From an uncultured Acidobacteriota bacterium (GTDB lineage Bacteria; Acidobacteriota; Vicinamibacteria; Vicinamibacterales; 2-12-FULL-66-21): a DNA stretch of 64,000 bases. Positions within the stretch are counted from its first letter, which is position 1, and the number at the start of each line of letters is the position of its first letter. The notes beneath the pieces are model-generated. The model saw only the letters and a program-made list of their open reading frames with translations. It did no database searches and was not told the origin of the DNA. Position numbers and translations under genes: made by a program. Shown piece after piece: positions 12,127 through 62,597 of this stretch. The stretch covers positions 33,795 through 97,794 of the forward strand of contig CAWGAS010000023.1 of the NCBI GenBank assembly GCA_963820645.1, given 5' to 3'.

Positions 12127-12220
12127 TAGTCGCCGAATCGCGTAATCCGCGCAATCACTCGAATCAGCTGAATCCTGAGCCCGATTCGAGGATTCGAGGA
12201 TTCGGCGATTAGTCGATTCC
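12127..12220. repeat. word array / imperfect hairpin (word GAATC, then GATTC)
   Basis: Left half TAGTCGCCGAATCGCGTAATCCGCGCAATCACTCGAATCAGCTGAATC. Right half GATTCGAGGATTCGAGGATTCGGCGATTAGTCGATTC is its approximate reverse complement. It sits between the convergent Slt gene and a membrane-protein gene. Confidence 0.6.
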
Positions 12221-12275
12221 GGGACGTCGGTCACGATCGTGACTCCGGTCAACTCCGTACTGGAGTCCGTGTCCG

Positions 12276-13954
12276 CTACGGGAACGACATGATCTCGTAC
12301 AGCGTCATCGTCTCGTCGCTGGCGAGCAATCGGAGGTGGCGCGCGAAAGGCACGAGCCGGGTGCGGATTTCCTCCGCCCGCGGCCCATACATGTCCCAGT
12401 GGACGCCGACGTAGCGCGCGCGATGTTTCTGCAGCACCGCGAAGGCGTCGTTCGAGGGAAACGAGTCGAGCACGAACGCCGCCTCCCGGAAATCGCCCGG
12501 GATGTGGTCGCTGTAGCCGTTGATGAGCGGCATCCAGTGCGCCGTCGAGAACACCATGTACTGGGCGTGCAGGGGATACGCGATGCGCTCGCCGTAGAAC
12601 GGGAACTCCGCCAGGGGCGCGCGCGGCATCCCGGCGAGCAGCGCGTAGTTGCGCGAGATCGGCATCGCACGCTCCCACGGAAACGGCAGGACGTTGAGCT
12701 CGGCCACGGCCGCGAGCGCGAGGCCGGTTGCCGCGAGGCCGCGCCAGCGCCCGGCCCGCGACAGCAGGCGCCGGAAGGCGATCGCCGACAACACCGCGAG
12801 CACGAAGACGACGACCAGGCCGAACCGCGACGGCGCCCGAAGAAACGTGAACAGCGGGATGGCGCGAAACATCACGGTGTAGAGTCCCGCGGCGGGCCCG
12901 AAGGACGCCCAGAGCGCGACCAGCCCGATCGAGCCGTACATCCACACGGTTTCCCGATCCCGGCGCTCCCCAGCGTGCCGCCCCGCGCGCAGGCCCATCG
13001 CGGCGCCGGCCGCGCCGAAGGCGAGCGCCAGGATGCCGGGGAACATCACCTCGCCGATTCTCCAGCCCAGGCGCCGCGCCAACGCGAGCACGGGACCGTG
13101 CGCGTGCGCCGGCGTCGCCAGATAGCTCGGCCACGTCGCCGAATACCGCCGCGCGTCGTCGAGCGATCGCGAGAAACCCGCGTCGCGCTGCAGCTCCACG
13201 TACGGCAGGAAGAACGGAAGGACGAGGACGAGCGAGACGGCGGCGGCAATCGCGACGGCGCTCCAGTAGCGCGGGGCGCGCCACAGGCCGCGGCTGACGG
13301 CGAGAAACAGCACGCCGTAGCCGACCATCATCCCGGCGAAGATCCCGTAGTAGGCACAGGCCAGCGCCTGCGCCGCCAGCGCGAGGCCGAGCGCGATGCC
13401 CCGGCGCGGCGACGGCGCGTCCGCGAGGCGGTGCAGCGCGAGCAGTGCGATCGGGATGCCGCCCGCCATCAGCAGCTGGATGTGGGGACTGTGGGACAGG
13501 AAATACGGACAGAACGCGAACACGATGGCGGCGACGCCGGCCGCGGCCGAATCGCCGGACAGCCGCCGCGCGAGCAGCCACATGCCCAGGGCCGTGGATG
13601 CGAACGCAAAGAGCAGGGCGGTGTTGTGCGCCGTGAACGGGTTCCGTGTGAGCCACCAGGCTGGCGCGGCCGCCAGCCCCGGCCACGATGTTGGCTTCGG
13701 AAAAGGCCAGCGCGCGGCGATGCGGATAGAAGATGTTGGCGTTATAGAGATTGACCGGGTCGGCGACGATCGTGCGTGCCACCCAGGTGGTGCTCCAGAT
13801 GCTCCACTGGCCGTCCATCGTCGGTGATGCGCCCGAGCCGTCCGAGCCCGGCCGCGAGCGGCCACGTCATGAGGACCGCGATGGCCGCCGCCGCCGCGCA
13901 CGCGCCCGCCATCCGCAGCGCACGCGTCATCGTGGTGTCCGCGCGTGGCTCCAT
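12276..13954 (-). CDS. polytopic membrane protein, possibly a GT-C-type glycosyltransferase (ArnT/PMT-like), frameshifted
   Basis: ORF 12276..14408 supplies about 450 aa with many TM segments and a C-terminal soluble part (...HWMPLINGYSDHIPGDFREAAFVLDSFP...YEIMSFP*). N-terminal pieces MEPRADTTMTRALRMAGACAAAAAIAVLMTWPLAAG (ORF 13742..13981) and QWSIWSTTWVARTIVADPVNLYNANIFYPHRRALAFSEANIVAG (ORF 11206..13818). The functional call rests on fold-level resemblance only. Confidence 0.55.
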
Positions 13955-13955
13955 G

Positions 13956-13974
13956 TAGAATGCGGGACATTCTA
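13956..13974. promoter_or_regulatory. perfect 7-bp inverted repeat TAGAATG-N5-CATTCTA in a divergent promoter region
   Basis: TAGAATGCGGGACATTCTA lies between divergent start codons (13954 minus, 14002 plus). Each arm reads TAGAAT (-10-like) on its own strand. Confidence 0.35.
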
Positions 13975-14001
13975 ACGTCAATTCCCCCGAGCCAAACTGC
14001 T

Positions 14002-16647: not shown

Positions 16648-16654
16648 CGAGTGC

Positions 16655-16761
16655 GAGATCAAAAGATGAACAGGAGATCAGAAGATCAGGAGAATCAGGA
16701 AAATGAGAAAGAAACGCCTGGTCTCCTAATCTCCTGATCTCCTGTGCAAGCTCTTGATCTC
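16655..16761. repeat. word array / long imperfect hairpin (word GGAGATC/GATCTCC)
   Basis: The left arm GAGATCAAAAGATGAACAGGAGATCAGAAGATCAGGAGAATCAGG (about 42% GC by count) matches the reverse complement of the right arm CCTGGTCTCCTAATCTCCTGATCTCCTGTGCAAGCTCTTGATCTC. It fills the gap between the convergent stop codons at 16645-16647 and 16766-16768. Confidence 0.7.
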
Positions 16762-16765
16762 CGAA

Positions 16766-20891: not shown

Positions 20892-20925
20892 AAGGGCGGG
20901 CGCTTCGTGCGCCCGCCCTTTTTTC
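20892..20925 (+). terminator. rho-independent terminator
   Basis: AAGGGCGGGCGC-TTCGT-GCGCCCGCCCTT is a perfect 12-bp stem followed by a T6 run, 22 nt after the receptor stop. Confidence 0.75.
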
Positions 20926-22815: not shown

Positions 22816-22821
22816 AGCGGA

Positions 22822-22937
22822 CAGCTTGCCAGCTCACCAGCTTCCAGTCAGCCAGTTCGGTCACTGAGAACTGGAACCGAACTGCCAACTGGCAACTGGC
22901 TACTGGCAGCTGGGAAGCTGGCTAAGCTGGCAACTGG
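22822..22937. repeat. word array / imperfect hairpin (CCAGCT/CCAGTT, then AACTGG/AGCTGG)
   Basis: CAGCTTGCCAGCTCACCAGCTTCCAGTCAGCCAGTTCGG ... GAACTGGAACCGAACTGCCAACTGGCAACTGGCTACTGGCAGCTGGGAAGCTGGCTAAGCTGGCAACTGG. It fills the 127-bp spacer between the two co-directional ABC exporter genes. Confidence 0.65.
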
Positions 22938-22942
22938 AGCCC

Positions 22943-24920
22943 ATGTCTTTCCACGAAGAAGAAATCCTCGGCAAGGCCTACGACGCACGCCTGATGCGCC
23001 GGCTGCTCCAGTACCTGCGGCCGTACAAGCCGCAGGTGGCGCTGGCGCTCGCCGCGATCATCTCGGCCTCGGTCCTGCAGCTCGCGCAGCCGTACCTGAT
23101 GAAGCTGGCGATCGATCGCTACATCGCCAACGGCGATCTGCAGGGCGTCGATCGGATTGCGCTGGCCTTCCTCGCGATCCTGATCGGCTCGTTCGTGCTC
23201 GAGTTCGTCCAGACGTGGACGCTCCAGATGACCGGCCAGCGGATCATGTACGACATGCGCATGCAGATCTACCGGCACCTGCAGCGCATCGACCTCCAGT
23301 TCTACGACCGCAACCCCGTCGGCCGGCTCATGACCCGCGTGACGACCGACGTGGACGTGCTCAACGACATGTTCACGGCCGGCGTGGTCTCCATCTTCGG
23401 GGACATCTTCACGCTCGCGGGCATCATGATCGTGCTCGTCACGATGGACTGGCGGCTCGCGCTCGTGACCTTTGCCGTCCTCCCGCTCATCGTCCTCGTC
23501 ACGCAGTGGTTCCGCCGCAACGTCCGGGAGTCGTACCGGACCGTGCGCGCCTGGGTGGCGCGAATCAACGCGTTCCTGCAGGAGCACATCACCGGCATGC
23601 CGACGGTGCAGCTCTTCCGCCGCGAGCGCCGCACCTTCGAGCGGTTCGACGAGATCAACCGGAAGCACCGGGACGCCAACATCGATTCGATCCTCTTCTA
23701 CGCCGTGTTCTACCCGGCCATCGAGGTGATCGGGGCCCTCGCGTCGGCGCTGATCATCTGGTTCGGCGGCGGATGGACGCTGCAGGGAACGCTCACCATC
23801 GGATCGCTGGTCGCGTTCCTGCTCTATTCGGGCCGCTTCTTCCGCCCGATCAGCGACATGTCGGAGAAGTTCAACGTCCTCCAGGCCGCGATGGCGTCCT
23901 CCGAGCGCATCTTCAAGCTCCTCGATACGCCGATCACGATCGAGTCGCCTGTGGGTGCGATCGAGTCGGGATCCGGGATCCGGGATCCGGGATCCGACAT
24001 GCCTGCGATCGCGTCGGATCCGAGATCCGGAGTGCGGGATCCGATTTGGCTGAGAACCTTTCCGGATCCCGGATCCCGAATCCCGAATCCCGGCAGCGGG
24101 GTCCGGGCCCGCCTCCGGACCCCGCACCGAAGGCCACATCATCTTCGACCGCGTGTCCTTCGCCTACGACGGCGAGAACGAGGTCCTGCGCGACGTCTCC
24201 TTCGAGGTCCGGCCGGGCGAGCGCGTGGGCATCGTCGGCGCGACCGGCGCCGGGAAGTCGACGCTCATCAACCTCCTGCTGCGGTTCTACGACGTGACGC
24301 GCGGCCGGATCCTCGTCGACGGCGTCGACGTGCGCGACATGGATCTCACGCGCCTGCGGCGGCTGTTCAGCCTCGTCCTGCAGGACGTGCACCTGTTCTC
24401 GGGCACGATCGCCGCCAACATCCGGCTGGGCGAGGCCGCGATTGACGACGCGGCGGTGAAGCGCGCCGCCGAGGCGGTGCACGCGGACCGGTTCATCGAC
24501 TGGCTTCCGGGCGGGTACGCGGGCGCGGTTGCGGAGCGCGGGGCCACGCTCTCGGTCGGTCAGAAGCAGCTGCTCTCGTTCGCGCGCGCGCTGGCGTTCA
24601 ACCCGCGGATTCTCGTCCTCGACGAGGCGACGTCGAGCGTCGACACGAAGACGGAGCTGCTGATTCGCGACGCGCTGCACGTGCTGATGGCCGGCCGCAC
24701 GACGATCGCCATCGCGCACCGGCTCTCGACGATTCAGGACATGGACAAGATCCTGGTCCTGCACAAGGGACAGCTGCGCGAGTCCGGCCGCCACCAGGAT
24801 CTGCTGGCGCAGCGGGGGATCTACTACAAGCTCTATCAGCTGCAGTACCGGGATCAGGAGAGAGCGGAGGGGACGGAGGCAACGAAGGCTACGGAGCCAG
24901 ATCTATTCAACATCGGCTGA
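22943..24920 (+). CDS. ABC exporter, fused permease/ATPase (MsbA-like), carrying a repeat insertion and a frameshift in the TMD-NBD linker
   Basis: The TMD in ORF 22943..24445 runs up to ...[17 protein letters not shown]. The NBD lies in ORF 24153..24920 ([73 protein letters not shown]). Confidence 0.9.
23956..24124. repeat. intragenic GGATCC word array plus terminal 9-bp hairpin
   Basis: GGGATCC x4 (23968-23995), then CGGATCCG, AGATCCGG, GGGATCCG, CGGATCCC, GGATCCCG, AATCCCG, AATCCCGG. It ends with GGGGTCCGG-GCCCGCC-TCCGGACCCC. It lies in the linker of the ABC exporter. Confidence 0.7.
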
Positions 24921-25050
24921 GCACGGAGGAACGGAGTAACGGAGACCAGAAAATCAAAACTTTGTTTTCTCCGTTTCTCCGTTCTCCGTTGCTCCGTGTT
25001 TGCGATGTTGAATAGATTGGCTCCGCTGACTCCGTCTCCTCCGTTCTCTC
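24858..25050. repeat. 193-bp imperfect palindrome (word ACGGAG/CTCCGT) spanning two convergent gene ends
   Basis: The left arm GAGAGAGCGGAGGGGACGGAGGCAACGAAGGCTACGGAGCCAGATCTATTCAACATCGGCTGAGCACGGAGGAACGGAGTAACGGAGACCAGAAAA matches the reverse complement of the right arm TTTTCTCCGTTTCTCCGTTCTCCGTTGCTCCGTGTTTGCGATGTTGAATAGATTGGCTCCGCTGACTCCGTCTCCTCCGTTCTCTC, about 80% by eye. Confidence 0.8.
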
Positions 25051-28939: not shown

Positions 28940-29165
28940 GAATTGAGAAAGATGAGGAAAGGCCCCGCTTTGCCGTGTGGGGAGGTCGGATGAACCTGCG
29001 TAGAGCAGGTGGAACCGCTGCACAAGCCACGCTTCAGGCTTCCTCTTACAGAGGCATGCACACCACGCGGCGTCGCGATTCTCTTAGGTGAAACGTTGGC
29101 TCAAACGAGCCTCCGAGCCATCACGCGCAAAGCAGGGAGCTCAAACTCCTCCGCGATCTTACTTC
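28940..29165 (-). ncRNA. candidate structured non-coding RNA, or the structured 5' leader of rny (unassigned)
   Basis: Nested long-range complementarity: 28963-28979 with 29122-29137, GGAGG 28981-28985 with CCTCC 29110-29114, and TGAACC 28991-28996 with GGCTCA 29098-29103. The mismatches become G:U pairs only on the minus-strand transcript. No plausible ORF. It lies directly downstream of zapA. Confidence 0.25.
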
Positions 29166-29319: not shown

Positions 29320-29637
29320 CTACTGCGCGACGGCCTGCGGCGGTTCGAGTCCCAGGGCGAGATCGAGCATGCGCTCGAGCGCTTCCGCCCGCTCGGCGAC
29401 GCTGTCCTGCTGGCGGCGCCCCTCGTCGCGCGACCGGAAGTACTCGTCGGCGATATTGAGCGCGGCGAGGACCGAGAGCTTCAGGGTGTCGCCGGCCGGC
29501 GATTCGACGGCCGCCAGGCGCATCTTCTCGTCCACATACGCCGCCAGCTCGGCCACGTAGACCGGATCGAGACCGCTCCGGATCGGGTACTCCTGCCCGT
29601 GGATCTGGACGCTGACGACGCGGGAGGGATCGGACAT
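29320..29637 (-). CDS. zapA: cell division protein ZapA
   Basis: MSDPSRVVSVQIHGQEYPIRSGLDPVYVAELAAYVDEKMRLAAVESPAGDTLKLSVLAALNIADEYFRSRDE... (inside ORF 29320..29718). Start taken at the Met at 29637. Confidence 0.85.
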   Translation of the reverse strand: MSDPSRVVSVQIHGQEYPIRSGLDPVYVAELAAYVDEKMRLAAVESPAGDTLKLSVLAALNIADEYFRSRDEGRRQQDSVAERAEALERMLDLALGLEPPQAVAQ

Positions 29638-29644
29638 TCTGTAA

Positions 29645-29790
29645 GGGTTCCGCCGGGTTCCACTGGGTTCCACAAGGTTCCGCGGGGTTCGGTTCCGCTG
29701 GGTTCCGCAGTGGTTCAAGGTTCGCGCCGGGACGACGAACGAGAACGAGAACGAACGAAACCAAGAACCAAGAACAAGAACAGGAACGCG
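29645..29790. repeat. word array / hairpin (GGTTCC array, then GAAC/AAGAACC array); GGAACC family
   Basis: GGGTTCCGCC GGGTTCCACT GGGTTCCACAA GGTTCCGCGG GGTTCGGTTCCGCT GGGTTCCGCAGT GGTTCAA GGTTCGCG ... GAACGAGAACGAGAACGAACGAAACCAAGAACCAAGAACAAGAACAGGAAC. The right half resembles the right half of the element at 46030-46115. Confidence 0.7.
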
Positions 29791-29791
29791 T

Positions 29792-30052
29792 CAGGTTCAA
29801 ACTCTCAATCTGCGCCAGCATGTCCCCGACCCGTGAACGAATCAGCTCGCGTTCCTCGCGGAGGGCGGCGATCTCGACGCCGGTGCCTTCGGCTTCCGCG
29901 ACGCGCGCCCTCATCGCGTCGAGCTCGCGCGTCAACCGCGCGTTCTCGTCCGACACCCGGCTGTGATCGCCCCGCAGCCGATCGATCATGCCGACGAGCA
30001 GTTTGACTTTCTCCTCGAGCCGATCGATGGGCTCGAGATCCACCCGCGTCAT
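29792..30052 (-). CDS. small coiled-coil protein (ZapB-like / DUF904-like), 3' end uncertain
   Basis: MTRVDLEPIDRLEEKVKLLVGMIDRLRGDHSRVSDENARLTRELDAMRARVAEAEGTGVEIAALREERELIRSRVGDMLAQIESLNL. The frame then runs on through the repeat with no stop until 29240. It lies upstream of zapA. Confidence 0.45.
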
Positions 30053-30149: not shown

Positions 30150-30169
30150 CTTCCGCCTTCAGGCGGAAG
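30150..30169 (-). terminator. stem-loop 3 nt downstream of the pheT stop (no U tract)
   Basis: CTTCCGCC-TTCA-GGCGGAAG is a perfect 8-bp stem. Its exact reverse complement recurs at 30098-30117. Confidence 0.4.
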
Positions 30170-30171
30170 AC

Positions 30172-33743
<3,572 letters not shown>

Positions 33744-33809
33744 CTTTTACTGATCCTCTTCGCTTCGCCGCTTCCCTCGCTTCCGCGCTTGCTGCAAGCT
33801 GCTGCGCGC

Positions 33810-36900: not shown

Positions 36901-38242
36901 CTATTTGACCAGGCCTTTTTTCAGGCGGTCGAGGGCCGCGTCGAGGATCGGATCCTTGTCGGACGTCGCCGCGCCGAACTCGACGACGTCGGCGTCGTCC
37001 ACGTCCACGTCGGGGTCGAGTCCCTTGCCCTGGATCGGGGCCTCGCGGACCATCGACGCGACCGGCTTTTCCGGGGGCGGGATCGAGCTCGCCCGGCCTG
37101 CGCGCCGGGCTCTCGGCCGGCTTCGCCGCCTGGACGGCCACGCTGCCCGGCCGGTAGTAGCTGGCGTAGGTCAACCAGAGGGCGCGGCCTTCCGGCAGCT
37201 TCACCAGCTTCTGCACCGCGGCGCGTCCGATCGTGTGCTCGCCGACGAGCTCCGCGCGCTTGTTGCCGCTGAGCGCCGCGGCGAACACCTCGGCGGCCCC
37301 GGCGGTGCCGCTCGTGATCAGGATCTGGACGGGGAGCGTGACCGCGCCGTCGCCGGCGCGCGCCTCGACGGTTTCCTTCGCCTCGCCCTTGCGCCCCGCC
37401 TTGATTGCGAGCGTGCCGGACTTGACGAAGAGGCGGGCCGCCGCGATGCCGTTCTCGATGGGCCCCTCGGCCGTTCGGCGGACGTCGATGATGAGCGATT
37501 TCGCGCCCGACTTCGAGACGTCGGCGATCTGCTTGCGCAGGTCCTCGACGACGCCGGCCCGGAAGCTGGTGATGCGGACGTAGCCTGCCTCGGGCGAGAG
37601 CAGCGGCAGATCCACCATGTTCGAGCTCTTCGCGGCCGGAGCGTCGCGGCCGGCGAGGCTGATAAGACGCCCGGTCACCAACGGCCCGGCCGCCTTTTCG
37701 CGCACCAGGGACACCTCGTGCGGATCCGCCGCGTTACCGCGGATGACCGTCAGCGTGACTTTCGAGCCGGGCTGGCCGCGAAGCAGGCGCATCCCTTCGA
37801 ACACCGACATGTCCCGCGCCGGCTTGCCGTCGATCGCCCGCACGTAGTCGCCGGTCTGCAGGCCCGCCTTGGCGGCGGGAGATCCGTCGCGCGCCGCGAT
37901 CACTCGAAGGTAGAACTGGCGCGTCAGCTCGAGGCCGATTTCCCCTTCCGGAATCGCGCTTCCGGATTCGACGTCCGCCAACAGTTTGGCGTTGAGGTAG
38001 GCGCTGTCGGGATCCAGCCCGTCGGCCAGGCCCTTCATCGCCCCTTCCATGACCTTGTCGACCTTGACCTCTTCGACGTACGTGCTCATGACGTGCTGCA
38101 GCACATCGTCGAACACCCGCAGGTGCTGGAAGGTGTCGTCTCCGCCGCGGGCCGACGCGTTACCCATCAGCCCACCGACGACGACAAAGACGAGCACGGG
38201 CGTCGACAGCAGGAGTACGGAGATTCGTGATTTCAAGGTCAT
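36901..38242 (-). CDS. carboxyl-terminal processing protease (S41 family, PDZ domain), C-terminal frameshift
   Basis: ORF 36863..38242: ...GEIGLELTRQFYLRVIAARDGSPAAKAGLQTGDYVRAIDGKP...GAKSLIIDVRRTAEGPIENGIAAARLF...LITSGTAGAAEVFAAALSGNKRAELVGEHTIGRA. The corrected tail ends ...DAALDRLKKGLVK* at 36901-36903. Confidence 0.85.
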
Positions 38243-41560: not shown

Positions 41561-41600
41561 CGAGGGTGGCATCCGGCTTTAGCCGGACCTCGCGGGTTTT
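41561..41600. other. terminator-like hairpin flanked by an A-run and a T-run, inside a divergent intergenic region
   Basis: CGAGG-GTGGCA-TCCGGC-TTTA-GCCGGA-CCTCG (41561-41592) is preceded by AAAAC and followed by CGGGTTTT. Confidence 0.3.
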
Positions 41601-42149: not shown

Positions 42150-43165
42150 AACGTGTTCTCGGCAGGTTGTTCGTCCTCCTCCTCCTCGCGTGTGCCGGGT
42201 TCGGGGCCTGGTTGTACTTCGGGCTCCAGCGGCCGTACAAGGGCTACCAGGGGGAAGAGCTGTTCGTCGAGATCCCGCAAGGCGCAGGGACCGTCTCGAT
42301 CGGGACGCGGCTGGCGGAGGCGGGGGTCATCCGCGACACGCTGAGTTTCCGGTTCGAGCTCGCGCGCACCGGCACAGCACGGCGGCTGCAGGCGGGAGAG
42401 TACCGGTTCGATCGGCCGATGAGCGTCGGGGAAGTCGTCGCCAAGATTGCCCGCGGTGACGTCTACCTGCGGCCGATTACGTTCCGCGAAGGGCTCACCA
42501 TCCGGCAGATGAGCGAGCTGTTCGAAAGCAAGGGCTTCGGTCCCGCGTCGGAGTTCGTGGCCGCCGCCGCGGACGCCGAGCCGATTCGCCGCTTCGATCC
42601 GGACGCGCGCGATCTCGAAGGCTACCTGTTTCCGGACACCTATGCGCTGCCTCGCCGCTCGACCGCCGCGGAGCTCGTCGCGCGCATGGTCGAGGGCTTC
42701 GAGAAAGTGCTGACGCCGGAGCTCCTCGCGCAGGCCGCGGCGCGCGGCCTGAGCGTCCGCGAGCTCGTCACGCTCGCCTCGATCGTCGAGAAGGAAACCG
42801 GCAACCCGGACGAGCGGCCCCTCGTGTCGGCCGTCTGCTGGAACCGGATGAAGATCGGCATGCGGCTGCAGGTCGATCCCACGGTCATCTACGCGCTCGA
42901 GCGCGCGCGGCGGTACGACGGAAACATCACGCGCGACGGTCTTCAAATCGACTCGCCCTACAACACCTACCTGTACGCCGGACTGCCTCCCGGCCCCATC
43001 GCCGCCCCCGGCCGCGCGTCCCTGGAAGCCGCCGCCAATCCCGCGAACGTGCCCTACCTCTACTTCGTCAGCCGCAACGACGGCTCACACGCCTTCGCCT
43101 CCTCGCTCGACGAGCACAACCGCAACGTCGTCGAATTCCAGAGGAACCCGAATCGAACGCGGTAG
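42146..43165 (+). CDS. mltG: endolytic murein transglycosylase MltG (YceG-like)
   Basis: Intact ORF: TM RLFVLLLLACAGFGAWLYF, ...DLEGYLFPDTYALP...LASIVEKETGNPDERPLVSAVCWNRMKIGMRLQVDPTVIY...YNTYLYAGLPPGPIAAPG. The start overlaps the ruvX stop. Confidence 0.9.
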   Translation: MKRVLGRLFVLLLLACAGFGAWLYFGLQRPYKGYQGEELFVEIPQGAGTVSIGTRLAEAGVIRDTLSFRFELARTGTARRLQAGEYRFDRPMSVGEVVAKIARGDVYLRPITFREGLTIRQMSELFESKGFGPASEFVAAAADAEPIRRFDPDARDLEGYLFPDTYALPRRSTAAELVARMVEGFEKVLTPELLAQAAARGLSVRELVTLASIVEKETGNPDERPLVSAVCWNRMKIGMRLQVDPTVIYALERARRYDGNITRDGLQIDSPYNTYLYAGLPPGPIAAPGRASLEAAANPANVPYLYFVSRNDGSHAFASSLDEHNRNVVEFQRNPNRTR

Positions 43166-43266
43166 AACCCAGAACCCGCGGAACCCAGAACCCAGAACCC
43201 AGCGGAACCCAGTAGAACAGAACCCTGCGGAACCCGGTAGAACCCCGTAGAACCAAGTGGAACCCT
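43143..43266. repeat. direct array of about 13 GAACCC words (GGAACC family), no obvious inverted half
   Basis: GGAACCCGAATCGAACGCGGTAGAACCCAGAACCCGCGGAACCCAGAACCCAGAACCCAGCGGAACCCAGTAGAACAGAACCCTGCGGAACCCGGTAGAACCCCGTAGAACCAAGTGGAACCCT. It begins inside the last codons of mltG and ends about 50 nt before the next start codon. Confidence 0.7.
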
Positions 43267-43317
43267 GTATTTACGACACCTGGTAGTAGTAGTGGTTGGG
43301 CTGCTAGGGTGGATCAC

Positions 43318-46037
43318 ATGCAAGTGTGCGTGCTCGGCATGTTCATCATGGCTCTCGTGATGGCCTGTCGCCGGCGCCGCTCGCCGCCGCGATCGACGTC
43401 TCCGGCGTCGTGCGCGACAGCTCGGGCGCGCCGGTGCGCGCCGCGGAAGTCGGCTTGCAGACGCCGGAGCTGACGGGCATCGCGCGGACGAAGACCGACG
43501 CCGAGGGAAGGTTCAGCCTGCCGGTGCCGGCGCCCGGCACCTACCTTCTGATCGTGCGGGCGGAAGCCTTCGGCGAGTCGCATCACGCGCTGACGGTCGG
43601 GGCCGAGGCTCCGCCGCCGCTCGCGATCGTCATCCATCCGGCCGGCCTTCGCGAAGAAGTCACGGTCACGGCGTCGCGCGGGACCGTCGAGGACATCCGC
43701 CTGGCCGGCCAGCCGGTCAACGTCATCGACGAGAGCGAGATCGCCGCCCGCGTCAAGACCGTCGTCGCGCAGGCGCTCGAAGGGGAGGCCGGCGTCCATC
43801 TTCAGCGGACGAGCCCGACGATGGCGGGCATCTTCGTGCGCGGGCTGACCGGCAACAAGGTCAACATCTTCGTCGACGGCGTGCGCTATTCGAACGGCGC
43901 GCAGCGCGGCGGCGTGAACACCTTCCTCGATCTCATCGAGCCGGAATGGCTCGAGACGATCGAGGTCCTTCGCGGTCCGTCGAGCGCGCAGTACGGAAGC
44001 GATGCGCTGGGCGGGAGCGTGCAGTTTCTCTCGCGCGCACCCGCGCTCGGGGTCGTGGGCGGACCGCAGTGGCGCGGGTCTTTGGGTGTCGACGCCGGCA
44101 CCGCGCATCACACCGGCGGAGGCAACGCGTTCGTGGCCTACATGGGCAAAGCCGTGGGCCTGACGGCCAGCATCGGCGGACGCAAGGCCGGCCAGTTCCG
44201 TCCGGGGGATGGGATCGACTCGCACGCGGCGGTCACGCGCTTCTTCGGCATCGCGTCGAGCGAGCTCATGGACGCGCGCCTGCCGGACACCGAGTTCGAG
44301 CAGTACGGCGGGGCGGTGCGATCGAACTGGGTCCCGAATGCGAGGACGCACATCTCCGCCAGCTACATGCGGACAAATCAGGACCGCGGAAAGCGCTACG
44401 ACCAGCTCCTCGGCGGCGACGGCAACCTGATCTCCGATCTGAACGATCTGTCGCTCGATCTCTTTTCCGCACGGATGGAACGGCTGGGCGCGGGCTGGTT
44501 CGACGACGCGTCGGTGATTTACTCGCTGAACAGCCAGCGCGAGGAGCGCGTGAACCAGGGGGGCAACGGCAACCCGACGGCGACGATCGGTCACGAGCCC
44601 GAGCGGACCACGGTCCACGGCCTCCAGGCGGCGTTTGCGAAGGCGATCTCCACACGGCACTCCGTGCGGTTTGGCGCCGACGTGAACTTCGAACGGCTGA
44701 CGTCGGACGCGTTCAACGTCAACCCGGTCAGCGGCGCGACCTCGCCTCGCCGCCCGCGGGTCCCCGACAACGCGCACTTTACGCAGGGGGGCGTGTACGC
44801 GCAGACCACGTTCGACGTCCGGCCGGATCGCCTGCGGCTCGCCGGCGCGCTGCGCTACGGCGGCGCGCGGTATACCGCGAAGGCCGCGGACAGCCCCGTC
44901 GTGAACGGTCAGCCGCTCTGGCCGGACGACTCGCTGACGACATCGAGCGTGACGTTCCGGGCGAGCGCCGTGGCGACGCCGTCCGATCCGTGGGCGGTGC
45001 TGGTGTCGGTGAGCCGTGGATTCCGCGCGCCGCACATGACCGACCTCGGCACGCTTGGCCTGACCGGCTCCGGCTTCGAAGTCGCGGCTCCGGACGTCGC
45101 CGGTCTCGGCGGCTTCGTCGGGACGACGGCGGATGCGGCGGCCGTGTCAACCGGCGATCCCGTCACGCAGGTCGGCCCGGAGACGTCGCTGCAGTATGAG
45201 GGATCGATACGGTACCGCCGTCCGCGTTTCCGCACGGAGCTGTCGCTCTTCACCAACAACGTGTACGACAACATCCAGAAACAGGCGCTGATCCTGCCGC
45301 AGGGCGCCGTCGGCACGAGCCTCGGCGGCACGCCGATCACGGCGCAGACCGCCAACGGCACCGTGTTCGTGGCCGCGACGACCGTGCCGGTGCTGGTCCG
45401 CGCGAACTTCGACAACGCGCGCGTCTGGGGCATCGAGCACAGCGCCGAGGCGCGCGTCGCGAACACCGTCACCGTCACGACGGCCTTCACGTACCTGCGT
45501 GCGAAGGACACGGGGACCGGGCTGCCCCCCAACATCGAAGGGGGCACTCCCGCGCCCGACGCCTGGTTCGCCGTCCGCTGGATGCGGCCGGACGGGCGCG
45601 TGTGGGTCGAACCCTACCTGCACGTCGGCTGGGAGCAGACCCACCTGTCGTCGCTCGACCTCGGCGACCGGCGCACCGGCTCCGGCCGGACGCGGACGAG
45701 CATCCGTGCGTTCTTCCTGAACGGCGCGCGCGCCAGAGGCTGGATCGGCCCCGGCACCGACAACGTCTTTGGCACCGCCGATGATCTGCTGACGGCCACG
45801 GGGGAAACGCTGGCGCAGATTCAGGATCGTGTGCTCGGCGTGGGGGTCAATTCGTCGTCGCTCTTCCCGACGATTCCCGGGTACGCGACGTTCGGCGTGC
45901 GCGCGTCATTCCGCGCCGGCCGCCATCAGGTGACGATCGACGCCGAAAACCTCGGCGACGAGAACTACCGGGGACTCAGCTGGGGCCTGGACGCCCCGGG
46001 CCGCGGGATGTCGGTGAAGTATTCCACGAGGTTCTGG
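43318..46037 (+). CDS. TonB-dependent receptor; N-terminal frameshift; no stop codon at the expected C-terminus
   Basis: ATG at 43318 gives the signal-like MQVCVLGMFIMALVMAC, which shifts into ORF 43326..46241. CarboxypepD_reg-like IDVSGVVRDSSGAPVRAAEV, plug LEGEAGVHLQRTSPTMAGIFVRGLTGNKVNIFVDGVRY, barrel, end ...GRGMSVKYSTRFW at 46037. The frame then stays open to 46241. Confidence 0.85.
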
Positions 46038-46115
46038 GGTTCCGGTTCTCGTTCGGTCCCATCTCGGCCGAACTCGAACGAACCAAGAACGAAGAACCAA
46101 GAACCAAGCGGTTCC
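46030..46115. repeat. word array / hairpin (GGTTC, then GAACC/AAGAACC); GGAACC family
   Basis: GGTTCTGGGGTTCCGGTTCTCGTTCGGTCC-CATCTCGGCC-GAACTCGAACGAACCAAGAACGAAGAACCAAGAACCAAGCGGTTCC. It lies between the receptor C-terminus (46037) and the convergent nadK stop (46115-46117). Confidence 0.7.
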
Positions 46116-46996
46116 TATCGTTCACTCCACTTCAGCTTCTGTCTCAGCACGTCGAAATACGTCCGCGTCGACGCACGTACGAGTCGCAGCGGCTTGTACG
46201 CGCGCCGGACGCTGATCACGTCGTCGGGTTGCAGGGCGTGACCCGACTGGCCGTCGAACGTCACGAAGACCTCGTCGTTGGACCCGTTGAACGCCGGCCG
46301 CACGCGGACCTCCGATGCGGCGGGGATGACGATCGGGCGGTTCGTGAGCATGTGCGGCGCGATCGGCGTCAGCAGCATCGCGTCCACTTCCGGATGCAGG
46401 ATCGGTCCGCCGGCCGCGAGGTTGTAGGCGGTCGATCCGGTCGGGCTCGCGATGATCAGGCCGTCGGCGCGAACGCGCATCACCGGCTGCTCGCCGATCG
46501 CGACGGAGAGGTCGATGATCCGCGACAGCGCGCCTTTCGTGATCACGACGTCGTTCAGCGCCAGGCGGTCGGCGTAGATGCCCCCGGCGCGCAGGGTGCG
46601 CGACTGCAGCATCATCCGCTCCTCGATCTCGGCGGTGCCGTCGAGCACCGACTCGAGCGAGGGATAGAGCTCGGGGAGCGTGATCTCGGTCAGAAACCCC
46701 AGGCTGCCGAAGTTGACGCCGACGATCGGGACGTCGGCGCCCGCCTGCGCGATGCGGTCGGCCATCCCGATGAGCGTGCCGTCGCCGCCGAGGACCACCA
46801 TCAGGTCGCACGCGTTGGGAAGATCGTCGCGGTGGACCGTCTCCCGCTCGGACGGCAGCCCGGCGAGCTTCGCGGTCTCGGTCTCGAACACCGGCTCGAT
46901 GTTGCGCGCCTCGAGCCATCCGGCGAGCTCCGCCAGGACGCCTGCCGCCGCATCGAGGCCGCTCTTGGCCACGAGACCTACGCGTGTGATCGGCAT
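46115..46996 (-). CDS. nadK: NAD kinase
   Basis: Intact 293-aa ORF: ...DLMVVLGGDGTLIGMADRI...VPIVGVNFGSLGFLTE...ALNDVVI...DGLIIASPTGSTAYNLAAGGPI. Confidence 0.9.
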   Translation of the reverse strand: MPITRVGLVAKSGLDAAAGVLAELAGWLEARNIEPVFETETAKLAGLPSERETVHRDDLPNACDLMVVLGGDGTLIGMADRIAQAGADVPIVGVNFGSLGFLTEITLPELYPSLESVLDGTAEIEERMMLQSRTLRAGGIYADRLALNDVVITKGALSRIIDLSVAIGEQPVMRVRADGLIIASPTGSTAYNLAAGGPILHPEVDAMLLTPIAPHMLTNRPIVIPAASEVRVRPAFNGSNDEVFVTFDGQSGHALQPDDVISVRRAYKPLRLVRASTRTYFDVLRQKLKWSER

Positions 46997-47007
46997 GGCT
47001 GGCGGCT

Positions 47008-47111
47008 GGTCTCCGGTCTCAGGTCTCTGGTCTCGAGCGTCTCGGGTCTCAGGTCTCCGGTCTCTGGTCTCCGGTGTCTCAGGTGGTCTCTCGTCGTCGG
47101 TGAGTCTCTGG
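47008..47111. repeat. array of about 12 GGTCTC words (GAGACC family)
   Basis: GGTCTCCGGTCTCAGGTCTCTGGTCTCGAGCGTCTCGGGTCTCAGGTCTCCGGTCTCTGGTCTCCGGTGTCTCAGGTGGTCTCTCGTCGTCGGTGAGTCTCTGG. Two inverse words (AGACCTGAGACC) occur at 47190-47203. On the minus strand it reads as a GAGACC array ending 11 nt before the nadK ATG. Confidence 0.75.
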
Positions 47112-47199
47112 CGTGGTACGCTAGGTCATCGGTCAGATCTCTGCTTGGCGTAGTGACGAAGGACTCAAGACGCGCGTCCAGGACGCGGCAAGACCTGAG

Positions 47200-47948
47200 A
47201 CCGACACGTAGCTGCCGCAGGTGCAGCAGGAATTCGCGGTTGCCTTCCATGCCGGCAATCGGCGACTCGGTCATCCCCACGCGCCCCAATCCTAGCGCAT
47301 CCGCCGCGGCCGCGATCTCTTCGACGACGCGCGCCTGGACCGCGGCGTCGCGGACGATCCCCCCTTTGCCCACTTCGTCCCGCCCCGCCTCGAACTGCGG
47401 TTTGACGAGCACGATCACGTCCGCGGCCGGCGCGCAGCAGGGGGGCACGTCGGGCAGGATGTGGCGCAGCGAGATGAACGACACGTCGATGGTGACGATG
47501 TCGAACGCGGCGAGCGCCGGCGGCAGATCGCCGGGCGTGAGCGTCCGGGCGTTGATGCGCTCGAGCACGACGACGCGCGGATCGCTGCGGATCTTCCAAT
47601 CGAGCTGGCCGTGGCCGACGTCGAGCGCCACGACGCGCGCCGCGCCGCGCTGCAGGAGCACGTCGGTGAACCCGCCGGTCGAGGCGCCGATGTCGAGCGC
47701 GAGGCGTCCCGTTGACGTCGACCGCGAACACGTCGAGCGCGTGCGCGAGCTTGAGGCCGCCGCGTCCGACGTACGGGTGATCCGGGGTCGCGACGGTGAT
47801 CTCGGCGTCCCGCGGGACCGCCGTGCCCGCCTTGGTGACGGCTGGCCGTTGACGCGCACGTCGCCGGCGAGGATCAGCGCGCGCGCCCGTTCGCGCGAGG
47901 CGGCGAGCCCGCGCTCCACGACCAGCGCATCGAGACGGATGCCGTTCT

Positions 47949-47952: not shown

Positions 47953-50662
<2,710 letters not shown>

Positions 50663-51947: not shown

Positions 51948-52074
51948 AGCTCGCACGGTCCCGGCGGCGAAGCTGCCGGCTGTCTCGAAAAACACCGGCC
52001 GCTGCGTGAACCCAAGAAAGAGGATCATTGAGGACTGATTCATTATATTAGTGTTTATACATCATGTTTAATGC

Positions 52075-52103
52075 TTGACATATACTAAGATAATTCGTAT
52101 ATT
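52075..52103 (+). promoter_or_regulatory. sigma-70-type promoter of the plus-strand hsp20
   Basis: TTGACA (52075-52080), a 17-nt spacer, then TATATT (52098-52103). It is embedded in a 90-bp stretch of 27% GC (52021-52110, counted directly). AGGAGG lies 8 nt before the ATG at 52158. Confidence 0.55.
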
Positions 52104-52157
52104 CATCAAACGGGCGATTTGAAAGGACCCGCGAGGTTTCTTCAGGAGGTAGGCAAA

Positions 52158-53929: not shown

Positions 53930-54067
53930 GTGATCCCTCCGGCTGTGGTTGACGGGAGTCCGGTGCTCATGCGCCAAGAATGCACGTGACCAGCCTCCGG
54001 CACGTGTGCACAAGTGAACAGTCCGAGATCCCGGTGGCGTCCGGCTTCAGCCGGACCAATCCCTGTC

Positions 54068-56672: not shown

Positions 56673-56774
56673 GGACCAGAGACCGAAGACCGAAGACACG
56701 AAAGACCCGAGACCTGAGACCCAGTCGAGTCCCGAGCCCCGAGTCCCGAGTCCCGAGCCCCGAGTCCCGAGATC
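56673..56774. repeat. two-part word array: GA(A/G)GACC words, then seven CGAG(T/C)CC heptamers; GAGACC family
   Basis: GGACCAGAGACCGAAGACCGAAGACACGAAAGACCCGAGACCTGAGACCCAGT, then CGAGTCC CGAGCCC CGAGTCC CGAGTCC CGAGCCC CGAGTCC CGAGATC. It ends 3 nt before the amrB ATG and is the reverse complement of the words at 47008 and 49156. Confidence 0.75.
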
Positions 56775-59050: not shown

Positions 59051-59058
59051 TGAAGATC

Positions 59059-59932: not shown

Positions 59933-60007
59933 CTGGTAGGCCGCCGGCCATGGCACCCTGCTTGCACCGCTGAGGCTGGCTAGCACGGCGTAGCGGGAGG
60001 ATTGCTC

Positions 60008-60151
60008 ATGCTTTGGACCATCGTCTTCGTGCTGTTGATCCTGTGGGTTCTTGGTTTCGCCATGAAAGTGGCTGGGGGGTTGATTCATGCCCTGCTCGTC
60101 ATCGCCGTGGTCGTCGTGATCTTCAAGATGCTGAGCGGCCGGCGCATCTGA
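60008..60151 (+). CDS. lmo0937-family small membrane protein (47 aa; below the ORF-track cutoff)
   Basis: Manual translation: MLWTIVFVLLILWVLGFAMKVAGGLIHALLVIAVVVVIFKMLSGRRI*. GGAGG lies 8 nt upstream. Confidence 0.7.
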   Translation: MLWTIVFVLLILWVLGFAMKVAGGLIHALLVIAVVVVIFKMLSGRRI

Positions 60152-60261
60152 ACGGAACCGGGCGTTGCCCCGGCCCGGGGATTCCGGGCGGGGATACGTC
60201 CGCTGCGTACGAAGCGCCAGAAAAGACGCGCGCATGCGGGGATATGATCGTAGTGACAGTC

Positions 60262-60946: not shown

Positions 60947-60947
60947 C

Positions 60948-61066
60948 GGGAACTCCCAAGAAAGCCAACTCCCAACTCCCAAACAGCCTGGGAGTGAAAG
61001 TCGCAGCGACTTCGCCCAGCTGGTGCGAACCCAAGTCCTTTGGGAGTTGGTCTCTTTGGAGTTCGT
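60948..61066. repeat. word array / hairpin (ACTCCCA x3, then TGGGAGT-like x3)
   Basis: The left part GGGAACTCCCAAGAAAGCCAACTCCCAACTCCCAAACAGCC matches the reverse complement of the right part TGGGAGTTGGTCTCTTTGGAGTTCG. Inner hairpins are CTCCCA-AACAGCC-TGGGAG and AAGTCG-CAG-CGACTT. It starts 2 nt after the upstream stop. Confidence 0.7.
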
Positions 61067-61093
61067 GGTTGACCCTGTCGTATACTCCCGTTC

Positions 61094-62119
61094 TTGAAGC
61101 TGCGCGACCTATCGGAGCGCCTCGGCTGTCGTCTTGAAGGGGACGGCGACATCGAGATCCACCGCGTCGCCGGGATCGAGGATGCCGGCGCCGGCGACCT
61201 GACCTTTTTCAGCAATCCCAAGTACGCGGCGGCGCTGAAGCAGACGGGAGCGTCGGCCGTCATCGCCGGCGATCGCGCCGAAGGCGCCCCGTGCGCGGTC
61301 CTGCGCGCCCGCCATCCCTACCTCACGTTCGCCAAGGCCGTCGAGCTCTTCGCGGATGCGTGGCGGCCGTCGCCCGGCATTCACCGCCTTGCCGATGTCT
61401 CGGCCAGCGCCACGATCGGCGAGGACGCCTCGGTCGGCGCGTTTGCCGTCGTCGGCGACGGCGCGTGGATCGGGGCGCGCACGGTGCTGTATCCGCACGT
61501 GACCGTCGGCCGCGAGGCGCAGATCGGCGACGACTGCGTGATCCATGCCCGCGTGTCGATTCGGGAGCGTGTGCGGATCGGAAACCGCGTCGTCGTCCAG
61601 GACGGCGCCGTCATCGGCAGCGACGGGTTCGGGTTCGCGCGGACGCCCGAAGGCGCGCACTACAAGATCCCGCAGATCGGCGGCGTGTCGATCGGGGACG
61701 ACGTGGAGATCGGCGCGAATGCGACGATCGATCGGCCGGCTGTGGGGGAGACGCGGATCGGGGCGGGCAGCAAGATCGACAACCTGGTGCAGATCGCGCA
61801 CGGCGTGACCGTCGGCCGCGACGTGCTGCTCGCCGCCCAGGTCGGCATCGCCGGCAGCACGACGATCGAGGATGCCGTCACGCTCGCCGGCCAGGTCGGG
61901 GTGTCGGGCCACATCACGATTGGCAAGGGCACGATCGCGACGGCGCAGACCGGCGTGCCGAATTCCGTGGAGCCCGGATCCTTCATCTCCGGCTACCCTG
62001 CCATCGACAACCGCGCGTGGCTGAAGTCGTCGGCCGTGTTCCGGCGGCTGCCGGAGCTGCGCAAGACCATCGCCGACCTCGCGGCGCGCCTGGCCCGGCT
62101 GGAGTCACGCCTCAAGTAG
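61094..62119 (+). CDS. lpxD: UDP-3-O-acylglucosamine N-acyltransferase
   Basis: Intact 341-aa ORF (TTG start) with left-handed beta-helix hexapeptide repeats, ...GSDGFGFA...[26 protein letters not shown] and a C-terminal helix. Confidence 0.9.
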
Positions 62120-62242
62120 CGCGCCCGGCGCCATTTTTTACCTCTGCTTGCTGTGCTGTCTGGTCAGAAAACAGATTGGACAGTTGCCGTGTTCGCCCTG
62201 TACCACCAATTCAATCAACGGACCTCGCTGTCAAACAGGCTT

Positions 62243-62597
62243 CGCTGTTCTTCCAACACGGGGGTCACGGAGGCCACGGAGACTCTAACTTCACCCTCCC
62301 GCACGCACTCGAGCCGCGCGAGCGCGGCGGGGTCAGGCGAGACCGAGGAGACAAGCAGCCCAGTCTCGGATCGCTGCTTGCCTCCTCGATCTCGTCTGAC
62401 CCTGCAACGCCGGCCTCCGGCAACACGAGGCCGGCGCTCGAGTGCGTTCCCCCTAGACTTCTGTCGTCAGTGTCCTTGTTTTGTTCGAACTGGCTGTCAA
62501 GTGAGCGATCGTGTCGAAATACGAACTCCAACCCAGTCGCTTCGGTCCTTGAGCCTTCTCCGTGACCCCCGTGGCCTCCGTGTTGGGAAGACAGGCG
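62243..62597. repeat. about 355-bp nested imperfect palindrome / structured element in a 675-bp non-coding gap
   Basis: Outer arms 62243-62283 (CGCTGTTCTTCCAACACGGGGGTCACGGAGGCCACGGAGAC) and 62558-62597 (CTCCGTGACCCCCGTGGCCTCCGTGTTGGGAAGACAGGCG). Inner stem GCACTCGAG (62305-62313) with CTCGAGTGC (62437-62445). A 30-bp hairpin at 62330-62402 and a 9-bp perfect hairpin at 62409-62435. Confidence 0.7.

Follow-up and report, generated by a model that had tools for sequence, protein, structure and literature searches.

Many of the spacers in a 64,000-nt stretch of DNA from an uncultured Acidobacteriota bacterium (GenBank assembly GCA_963820645.1, contig CAWGAS010000023.1, positions 33,795 to 97,794; this whole stretch is called the window below) are occupied by degenerate tandem arrays of a short word, often followed by an array of the reverse-complement word, with the word differing from locus to locus. 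We think it reasonably probable that these are heptanucleotide simple sequence repeat (SSR) arrays and inverted pairs of such arrays, drawn from many words, made by slippage and inverted copying and filtered by selection. The arrays look more like the product of a copying process than like a dedicated RNA element, and they probably represent the type of heptamer repeat known from Xanthomonas and cyanobacteria, here with many words and with at most a secondary function. Such arrays are a trait of the whole order Vicinamibacterales.

The window has a G+C content of ~69% and is core chromosome of a Vicinamibacterales acidobacterium, apparently taken from a long-read metagenome-assembled genome (MAG). 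Its core housekeeping genes include those for tmRNA, an SLT/TPR protein, an outer-membrane barrel protein, two ABC exporters (ABC1 and ABC2), RNase Y and 6S RNA; further genes are zapA, pheT, rplT, tRNA-Val, mltG/YceG, a TonB-dependent receptor gene, nadK, tlyA, ispA, xseAB, gatCA, a Memo-like gene, lpxD and an M16 peptidase gene (Pfam and Rfam assignments). The gene map of the window was a frame-agnostic periodicity track of G+C at third codon positions (GC3), and spacer counts are approximate because this track is noisy. Relatives of the window NAD kinase, taken from one-genome-per-species GTDB contigs, were nearly all Acidobacteriota MAGs of the order Vicinamibacterales (subdivision 6, including Luteitalea). 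Loci from other genomes carry numbers prefixed with L, and L048, a separate genome at 93-97% nucleotide identity, is the closest match to the window. Two sets of loci were used for a census, with a total sample of ~1.7 Mb surrounding two operons: the window plus 63 nadK loci (~1.3 Mb), in which arrays were called by Tandem Repeats Finder (TRF), and, independent of these, 75 non-redundant metagenome loci that surround the ABC operon. Coding status and gene orientation in these sets were assigned by a codon-periodicity heuristic. Within the window, arrays were also called by a detector that required one 5-mer (on either strand) at least 6 times within 80 nt, with 40 second-order Markov simulations as the control, and hairpins were assessed by folding against dinucleotide shuffles and expressed as z scores.

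The detector returned 14 regions in the window, compared to a mean of 1.15 (maximum 4) in the simulations. Eleven of the 14 lay at 11 of the 13 loci listed in the original prediction, which had been made by reading the sequence and whose positions are used here as locus names; loci 16655, 60948 and 62243 were under the detector threshold and are visible by eye, TRF or folding. Regions 516-595, 30152-30220 and 36939-37012 have GC-only words, and we take these as chance matches. By direct reading and TRF, the words given in the original prediction are present at all 13 loci, eight different words in all, and its account of a real class of spacer-filling arrays whose word changes between loci is borne out. 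The word length it gave, 5-9 nt, can be refined to a period of mostly 7-8 nt, made up of a 5-6 nt core and 1-3 variable bases. Arrays occupy ~12 of the ~30-35 true spacers of the window, or about a third.

In the 57 relatives and the 75 independent metagenome loci, arrays occur at ~1 per 5 kb and almost only in non-coding DNA, as judged by the periodicity heuristic. Arrays with A/T-containing words sit in stretches of low codon periodicity. A period of 7 predominates, accounting for 149 of the 236 non-coding arrays in the window and 63 nadK loci (63%; 45 have period 8 and 29 period 9) and for 101 of 138 arrays (73%) in the independent metagenome set; among coding-like arrays, periods 9, 12 and 6 lead. 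Whatever their identity bin, loci of the order carried 1.6-2.6 arrays per 10 kb. Outgroup loci, two of them with 66% G+C, yielded a single array over 98 kb.

The vocabulary of the arrays is broad, with 86 distinct heptamers among the 149 period-7 arrays. A cyclic 6-mer was shared by 5.6% of site pairs from different genomes, which is about chance (our own estimate is ~4.7%); sharing rose to 14.6% within the same genome and to 27% for sites <3 kb apart. GGGAYTC-type words are present in some genomes (L001, L019 and locus 56673 of the window), and most words are without G3 tracts. Reverse-complement words were found within 150 nt in ~55% of arrays, compared to 14% for a reversed-word control. 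The most variable position of the unit took 51% of mismatches, against 40% expected, a moderate concentration, as one would expect of units that visibly combine a core with a variable linker.

Convergent, co-directional and divergent placements in the window are as originally described (periodicity map and Pfam), and arrays abut or overlap start and stop codons, as at 22816-22942, 46025-46114 and 49152-49253. In the census, arrays were present at ~25 of ~121 convergent junctions and at 15 of ~139 divergent ones, a roughly two-fold difference per junction. Inverted pairs made up 57% of arrays in co-directional spacers and 56% in convergent spacers. All four array-carrying convergent spacers of the window hold hairpin-type arrays; the rule this suggests, that convergent spacers carry hairpins, is not general, since the pair fraction is equal in co-directional spacers. 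Two further regularities were considered and dropped. A purine-rich, T-poor or Shine-Dalgarno-like bias on the sense strand of start-proximal arrays was only weak (55% purines), and L001 has G/T-rich words in that position. Nucleation of the inverted arm by words with a palindromic core found no backing, as 4-nt palindromes were not enriched in paired arrays (39% vs 43% expected) and their depletion in single arrays is partly a product of the classification.

Comparison of the window with L048 showed how quickly the arrays change. Five arrays are shared at the same spacers, with flanks 97-99% identical. Within arrays identity fell to 88.3% with 65 gap events per kb, compared to 95.9% and 4.3 per kb elsewhere, so that arrays evolve ~15 times faster by indels, and the differences are mostly indels of whole units. 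A 12-nt unit polymorphism was also seen among near-identical contigs; pairs of such contigs are dominated by one population and their indel rates are only indicative. At locus 46030 both arms changed word together, GGTTC/GAACC in the window corresponding to GGTCTC/GAGAC in L048, a case of concerted evolution of the two arms.

Orthologous spacers were compared in more distant genomes as well; the same spacers carry arrays in close relatives, and among many genomes the words differ. The spacer past the nadK stop codon carries an array and an inverted array in many genomes, each with its own word: TCCCAAC/GTTGGGA in L017 (-79 kcal/mol), CAGGAGRT in L054, GGAATTNG in L025 and L063, ATTTACA in L026 and AAGTCTS in L032 and L058. 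Elsewhere the same spacer measures just 0-25 nt. Most relatives have a short or overlapping tlyA-nadK junction, and in only some has an array expanded it.

The ABC1-ABC2 junction, compared across 40 metagenome loci, provides a stepwise series. ABC1 ends in ...GAGCTGGCGGCAAGCTGA, and in many genomes the ATG of ABC2 lies directly next to this end or overlaps it, which is the array-less state. In some genomes 3-4 AGCTGAN units carry on from the stop region. In L103, 4-5 direct AGCTGAN units run on from the ABC1 stop codon, and L067 has the perfect palindrome GCTGACAGCTGTCAGC at that stop codon. Full CCAGCTN...AGCTGGN hairpins are present in L070, L065, L066, L086 and the window, where the word matches the ABC1 gene end GAGCTGG...AGCTGA and the variants CCAGCT and CCAGTT are roughly mirror-imaged across the two arms. 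A one-base variant, CCAGTTN...AACTGGN, occupies both arms in L064, L068, L075 and L078. This series therefore demonstrates seeding from flanking sequence, together with homogenisation across units and arms, and gives direct support to the suggestion of local slippage seeded by flanking sequence made in the original prediction. At the same junction, L069, L074, L084, L087 and L092 carry a GGTTCYAC...GTAGAACC family with a period of ~10-11 nt, whose word equals those of window loci 29645 and 43143.

Arrays also enter coding sequence. The array at 23960-24100, an insertion of ~45-50 codons that the upstream paralogue lacks, lies in the ABC2 linker between the membrane domain and the ATPase domain. 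The frame changes by one base in its right arm, which is more likely an assembly error than a real disruption. In orthologues the stretch from LLDTP to GHIxFDHVxFAY ranges from 19-22 up to 76 residues, the longer linkers being in frame and holding repeats of 7 residues (for example TPDPGSL and SRIPDPG), each the translation of three heptamers. The C-terminal tail of ABC2 past LYQLQY(R/K)DQE is likewise hypervariable and repeat-derived. Linker and tail together thus indicate that arrays arise wherever they are tolerated. In L075 a second repeat-derived insertion lies inside the nucleotide-binding domain of ABC2, just past FAYD, with the same GGATCCC-derived peptide as the linker array.

Coordinates, words and settings of the arrays in the window are as follows.

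Table 1. Arrays of the window, with their flanking genes and the evidence for each (z, folding compared to dinucleotide shuffles).
Coordinates	Strand	Array	Setting	Evidence
12130-12222		GAATC(N3-5) array then GATTC(N3) array, hairpin	Convergent spacer; SLT/TPR gene stop 12129, minus-strand gene stop 12276 (flank by Pfam)	Sequence; TRF period 8; z=-3.4
16648-16765		CAGGAGAT array then CCTGATCT array, long imperfect hairpin	Fills convergent spacer; stop codons at 16647 and 16766	Minimum free energy -52.8/-62.9 kcal/mol; z=-8.0
22816-22942		CCAGCT/CCAGTT array then AACTGG/AGCTGG array	Entire spacer from ABC1 (stop 22815) to ABC2 (ATG 22943)	TRF, sequence; z=-6.0; orthologous series
23960-24100	+	CGGGATC x4 then GGATCCC/GAATCCC x4	Inside ABC2	TRF, sequence; z=-2.8 (weak)
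24858-25048		ACGGAG array then CTCCGT array, hairpin	Final ~60 nt of ABC2 (stop 24920) and whole convergent spacer to 3D-domain gene (stop 25049)	TRF, sequence; z=-4.7
29640-29800		GGGTTCCRCN array (period ~10) then GAAC(N2-3) array (period 6-7)	Between pheT (stop 30172) and zapA	z=+1.5
33761-33790		Weak CGCTTCC(C) array (sense GGAAGCG), absent from the original prediction	Between rpmI and rplT	TRF; rplT by Pfam
43140-43270		(A/G)GAACCC one-arm array, periods 7 and 10	Begins inside final mltG/YceG codons (stop 43165), upstream of TonB-dependent receptor gene	TRF, sequence; z=+1.0
46025-46114		GGTTC array then GAACC array, hairpin	Fills convergent spacer from TonB-dependent receptor stop codon to nadK stop	Sequence, L048 comparison; z=-2.5 (weak)
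46997-47205		GGTCTCN x ~10 (GAGACCN on nadK sense strand) and two reverse-complement copies at 47189-47205	Abuts nadK start codon (46996); expands tlyA-nadK junction	z=-1.2
49152-49253		GGTCTC/GGTCTT array and two GAGACC copies	Fills xseA-xseB spacer, abuts xseB start (49151)	z=-1.4
56673-56772		GAGACC(N) array then GAGTCCC/GAGCCCC array, without reverse-complement arm	Divergent gatC/Memo-like spacer; ends 5 nt before Memo-like ATG (56778)	z=-1.1; Pfam flanks
60947-61065		AACTCCC x3 then GGGAGTT x3, hairpin	Begins 1 nt past stop codon (60946), upstream of lpxD	z=-4.4; lpxD by Pfam
62245-62594		Composite locus, outer 38-nt inverted arms of CACGGAGGC units (62245-62282, 62557-62594)	Between lpxD and M16 peptidase gene; 274 nt between arms hold more nested hairpins	z=-10.1

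The original prediction had each locus folding into a hairpin of 40-95 bp, and this stands for ~8 of the 13. In the shuffle test 16655, 22822, 24858, 60948, 62243 and 12127 are clearly self-complementary and 23956 and 46030 weakly so, while 29645, 43143, 47008, 49156 and 56673 showed no significant hairpin against shuffles and are essentially one-arm arrays. At 29640-29800 the two words are complementary and their periods differ, hence the lack of a significant hairpin. Two of the three word families originally proposed, GGAACC (29645, 43143, 46030) and GAGACC (47008, 49156, 56673), were recovered by BLAST at 80-90% over 30-80 nt, within array parts only: 29640-29800 matched 43143 and 46030, and 49152-49253 matched 47008. 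In the third, 24858 and 62243 share only the 6-mer ACGGAG. The array at 24858-25048 is kept in the closest metagenome relative, L065, and is replaced or absent in others; that at 43140-43270 is also present in L048, with whole-unit indels. At 62245-62594 internal open reading frames (ORFs) had no Pfam match and the locus had no Rfam match.

Two arrays of the window run together with flanking reading frames. The word at 46025-46114 resembles the terminal codons of the receptor gene, AGG TTC TGA. The stop codon of that gene (46035-46037) is TGA in L048, after a terminal ...T-R-F, and TGG in the window, where the ORF reads through the array as far as 46241. The change may be a sequencing error, or else the stop codon was lost in association with the array. 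The tlyA frame (window 46978-47214, minus strand) is open through the whole GAGACC array to 46978 and overlaps the nadK start, while TlyA of relatives ends soon past ...EFLLHLR, so that the read-through in the window is either a C-terminal extension or a lost stop codon.

The hairpin-type arrays were compared with known RNA and DNA elements. Their stems are 40-95 bp long and their spacers are 46-66% G+C. A T-run after the stem (on either strand) was found in 7 of 93 hairpin sites, compared to 1.9% of random positions, and the other 86 of the 93 lacked the U-run typical of intrinsic terminators. A textbook intrinsic terminator lies at 20893-20925, past the outer-membrane barrel gene (GGGCGGGCGC-TTCG-GCGCCCGCCC then TTTTTT), and the genome thus also uses canonical terminators; the spacers of the window that lack arrays hold ordinary features, this terminator among them. 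In 38 hairpins between co-directional genes, sense and antisense RNA folded equally well on array cores (17 vs 21, p=0.2), and with flanks included the sense strand folded worse (p=0.025); with no sense-strand advantage there is therefore no sign of selection on the mRNA fold. The role as canonical bidirectional terminators put forward in the original prediction is accordingly weak, given the rarity of T-runs, the lack of a sense-strand advantage and the many orthologous junctions without a spacer, and canonical Rho-independent terminators were set aside on T-runs and stem length.

Rfam 15 at gathering thresholds passed only tmRNA, 6S RNA and tRNA in the window and nothing at the arrays; relaxing the limit to E<=1 added, at the arrays, only models of eukaryotic microRNA precursors, whose 24-35 bits fall short of their thresholds of 62-184 bits. 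BLAST among the window loci gave no consensus common to loci beyond the word. Repetitive extragenic palindromes (REP) and bacterial interspersed mosaic elements (BIME), which have a palindromic consensus of ~20-40 nt in hundreds of genomic copies, were rejected on this ground and because the vocabulary is locus-specific. CRISPR arrays, in which identical direct repeats of 24-48 nt alternate with unique spacers of similar length, were rejected because the units are 7-10 nt and contiguous. A miniature inverted-repeat transposable element (MITE) or other dispersed element was rejected as well: same-word loci match only in array parts and in several registers, with no common body, and arrays grow from local sequence. 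The original exclusion of these classes thus stands, no conserved body or terminal repeat being common to the loci and no Rfam family being found at them.

Under the explanation we favour, arrays would start from a short word that a gene end or spacer already contains. Replication slippage, tuned somehow to ~7 nt and with a step length presumably set by the replication machinery, would duplicate this word in tandem, creating and resizing arrays; the array would then quickly gain and lose whole units. In about half of cases it would be copied in inverted form, by template switching to the complementary strand or by snap-back synthesis, to give a long imperfect palindrome, and repeated copying from arm to arm would keep the arms complementary while the word drifts or is replaced. 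Template switching and snap-back synthesis are established for quasi-palindrome mutagenesis in E. coli. Purifying selection would act as a filter only, growth continuing until start or stop codons are reached, and arrays would survive in spacers, especially after 3' ends, and in frame in tolerant linkers and C-terminal tails, and more rarely in promoter-bearing divergent spacers. Effects on transcripts (a barrier to read-through, 3'-end protection or structure of the 5'-untranslated region [5'-UTR]) would be secondary and locus-specific. It is the molecular steps, slippage and template switching, and the absence of a dedicated function that we infer here. For the heptamer step, polymerase slippage or polymerase contact has been proposed (PMC4692102, PMC4679880).

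Several observations weigh against this explanation. Plain slippage leaves the 7-nt preference unexplained, as it does a largely invariant core of 4-6 nt next to one linker position open to several bases (the mismatch concentration given above). A given spacer retains its hairpin from one genome to the next although its word changes, and a convergent junction is about twice as likely as a divergent one to hold an array; selection for structure predicts both. The GTAGAACC/GGAACC family recurs at non-orthologous spacers in many genomes, where pure local seeding predicts otherwise. Finally, coding status and orientation came from a heuristic and not from curated gene calls.

Selection for the structures themselves is possible, though we consider it rather doubtful. 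The stems would then be useful as U-tract-independent terminators or read-through barriers, or as REP-like stabilisers of mRNA 3' ends, with slippage merely building and repairing them, and one-arm arrays by start codons would tune translation or 5'-UTR structure. Such selection would account for the hairpin type of all four array-carrying convergent spacers in the window, for the excess at convergent over divergent junctions, for the hairpin downstream of nadK in many genomes despite its differing word (stems to -79 kcal/mol) and for the pairing at 46030 that was kept though both arms changed word; in Xanthomonas, too, species agree in whether an array is single or an inverted pair (PMC4692102). 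Many orthologous junctions are, however, 0-25 nt long and without a hairpin, so that structure is dispensable there, and the equal share of inverted pairs in co-directional and convergent spacers, the equal folding of sense and antisense RNA, the T-run in only 7 of 93 sites of a genome that uses textbook terminators (20893-20925) and the hairpin arrays inside a coding linker all count against a role of this kind; moreover, template switching from arm to arm would keep arms complementary without selection. A regulatory role of the word, as a protein-binding site or a non-B motif (G-quadruplex or i-motif), has precedent in the cold-shock-type heptamer binders suggested for the TAACTGA repeats of Beggiatoaceae (PMC4679880) and the G-quadruplex and i-motif structures suggested for GGGNATC repeats of Xanthomonas (PMC4692102), and would suit a 4-6 nt core that is more conserved than the linker positions, the period of ~10-11 nt, about one helical turn, that is frequent in the GAACC family, and single-arm arrays that abut start codons. 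With 86 heptamers among 149 arrays and between-genome sharing at chance, however, no single binder explains the arrays, most words lack the G-tracts needed for a quadruplex, and arrays come and go at orthologous sites; we regard such a role as quite unlikely.

Non-autonomous mobile elements, either MITE-like or of the REP type mobilised by a REP-associated tyrosine transposase (RAYT), would have the arrays as their terminal inverted repeats, and inverted arms do flank a loop or body (at 62245-62594, 38-nt arms lie 274 nt apart), the genome has small same-word families, and the GAACC family is found at different loci in different genomes. That explanation is very improbable, however, as same-word loci have no unique body, loop or terminus in common and further copies are absent from the rest of the window, most words belong to a single locus, intermediate stages grow from local gene-end sequence, and no target-site duplications were found in the sequences inspected. 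As for an artefact of long-read MAG assembly or sequencing, 67 of 85 alignment gaps between the window and L048 outside arrays (window 36000-57000) are of 1 nt, mostly within coding sequence, and reading frames are broken in ABC2, ispA and xseA (24050-24120, 48500-48900, 49250-50300). To judge from their pattern, these gaps and frame changes look like residual homopolymer or indel error of long-read MAG assemblies rather than pseudogenes. Such error leaves the existence of the arrays unaffected: single-base errors cannot make periodic arrays of 50-150 nt, and the same architecture is present in the same spacers of L048 and in dozens of independently assembled MEGAHIT, SPAdes and JGI metagenome contigs, whose names suggest short-read assembly. 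We therefore give an artefact, which the original prediction had named as grounds for abandoning the class, practically no credence.

A bolder idea, which we hold to be improbable but worth stating, is that Vicinamibacterales have a lineage-specific, active process of writing that copies ~7 nt at a time and then copies the result onto the opposite strand, the hairpins being co-opted genome-wide as sequence-independent transcription insulators. Its basis may be a peculiarity of polymerase or repair, or a dedicated enzyme, and it may continuously convert gene-end sequence to evolvable palindromes in about a third of spacers and to disordered peptide repeats in linkers. If true, such a process would separate mechanism from motif, weaken the case for G-quadruplexes in the Xanthomonas and Nostoc repeats and open the long-standing heptamer puzzle to experiment.

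Other features were also recorded in the window and in L089. The 6S RNA gene (28958-29141, minus strand; Rfam 79 bits) lies directly downstream of zapA (~29320-29636, minus strand), with RNase Y next on the same strand, an order we take to be the same zapA-ssrS linkage as in E. coli. The tmRNA gene (7540-7891, minus strand; tag peptide ANTQLALAA) lies in a stretch of ~950 nt without codon periodicity. A small perfect hairpin, TCCGGCTT(T/C)AGCCGGA, is present in two copies (~41567-41585 and ~54033-54050) in unrelated spacers and may be a separate short palindromic repeat family. The 160-nt spacer at 51997-52155, between divergent genes, has 41% G+C and no array and looks like a promoter region. 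Repeats of a different, in-frame class occur in the coding-like ORF 8107-8865, as a 102-nt unit in two copies (92% match) at 8362-8564 and 33-nt repeats at 8676-8816. In L089, ~170 nt past the ABC2 stop, there are at least 7 tandem copies of a 23-nt unit, CCACCGGGGTCTGACCCCRCAGT, each with its own hairpin (GGGGTC-TGA-CCCC), an architecture that differs from that of the heptamer arrays.

Earlier studies were of cases where one word dominates (GGGAATC, GGGGAYT or TAACTGA), which invites word-specific explanations; the same architecture with essentially arbitrary words across an order of abundant soil bacteria points instead to a general mutational mechanism. The orthologous series from a 0-nt junction to a full hairpin illustrates how gene-end sequence can give rise to palindromes between genes and to new disordered segments of proteins. 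In practical terms, arrays inflate spacers, blur calls of start and stop codons and can pass for structured RNAs or terminators, and they probably concentrate problems of assembly and alignment in Acidobacteriota MAGs.

The original prediction had placed the arrays in no described category. In this it went too far, as intergenic heptanucleotide SSRs, in single arrays or inverted pairs by ORF ends, have been described for GGGAATC in Xanthomonas and GGGGA(C/T)T in Nostoc by Rehm et al. 2015, where 89-93% are intergenic and the repeats lie near ORF ends (PMC4692102). Those repeats occur as single arrays or as two convergent arrays with the potential for a stem-loop (~70 such pairs per Xanthomonas genome), keep the same gene neighbours in related species with variable length and sequence, and are rarer in divergent than in convergent spacers (PMC4692102). 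The arrays described here share the 7-nt unit, the proximity to ORF ends, the single or inverted-pair form, a lower frequency in divergent than in convergent spacers and a conserved position (the same spacers in L048) with variable length. They differ in phylum, in growing from flanking gene ends and into coding linkers, and in vocabulary: whereas in Xanthomonas and Nostoc a single G-rich word (GGGNATC), capable of forming the proposed G-quadruplex, dominates genome-wide, here there are 86 heptamers in 149 arrays, most not quadruplex-capable.

Long-unit SSRs as a class are said to have been surveyed in 2007 by Mrázek et al. According to that survey as cited in PMC4692102 and PMC4679880, heptamers are over-represented and the most abundant class of long SSRs (units of 5-11 nt) in prokaryotes. 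The present arrays resemble this class, as the citing papers present it, in their head-to-tail tandem short units (TRF at all loci), non-coding bias, unit lengths divisible by 3 in coding-like sequence, heptamer excess, copy-number instability between close relatives and occurrence in large high-G+C genomes. For the class, a slippage mechanism tied to how long a piece of DNA the polymerase holds has been put forward. The survey as summarised there has no Vicinamibacterales, paired inverted arrays or seeding from flanks, and the density found here (~1 per 5 kb, about a third of the spacers in the window) appears high. Cyanobacteria have tandem heptanucleotides of their own, which are called short tandemly repeated repetitive (STRR) sequences. 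They have been reported for Calothrix PCC 7601 (PMC4692102), and TAACTGA direct repeats of marine Beggiatoaceae and some cyanobacteria are mostly intergenic, many ending a few nt from a start codon (PMC4679880). In contrast to the present arrays, the TAACTGA repeats comprise one or very few words per genome in 2-6 copies, with one inverted case in 170 sets and a proposed translational role (PMC4679880).

Tandem repeats of Borgs, as far as the cited part of that report goes, form and evolve rapidly and arise independently at each locus, those in coding sequence being selected for intrinsically disordered regions (bioRxiv 10.1101/2022.05.18.492195). The 7-residue repeats of the ABC2 linker would be a parallel to these. 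Unlike the arrays, Borg repeats are archaeal, extrachromosomal and direct tandem, and the same part of the report gives neither a heptamer preference nor inverted partner arrays. REP, BIME and MITE sequences are likewise intergenic, palindromic and often past 3' ends, but have a conserved consensus or terminal repeats and are spread by transposase, while here only the architecture is conserved between loci. A literature search that did not cover all journals returned no account of such repeats in Vicinamibacteria or Acidobacteria. The present arrays are set apart from these systems by the spread across a whole order at high density, the birth of arrays from their flanks, which can be traced stepwise, and the free choice of word, which argues against motif-specific explanations such as G-quadruplexes.

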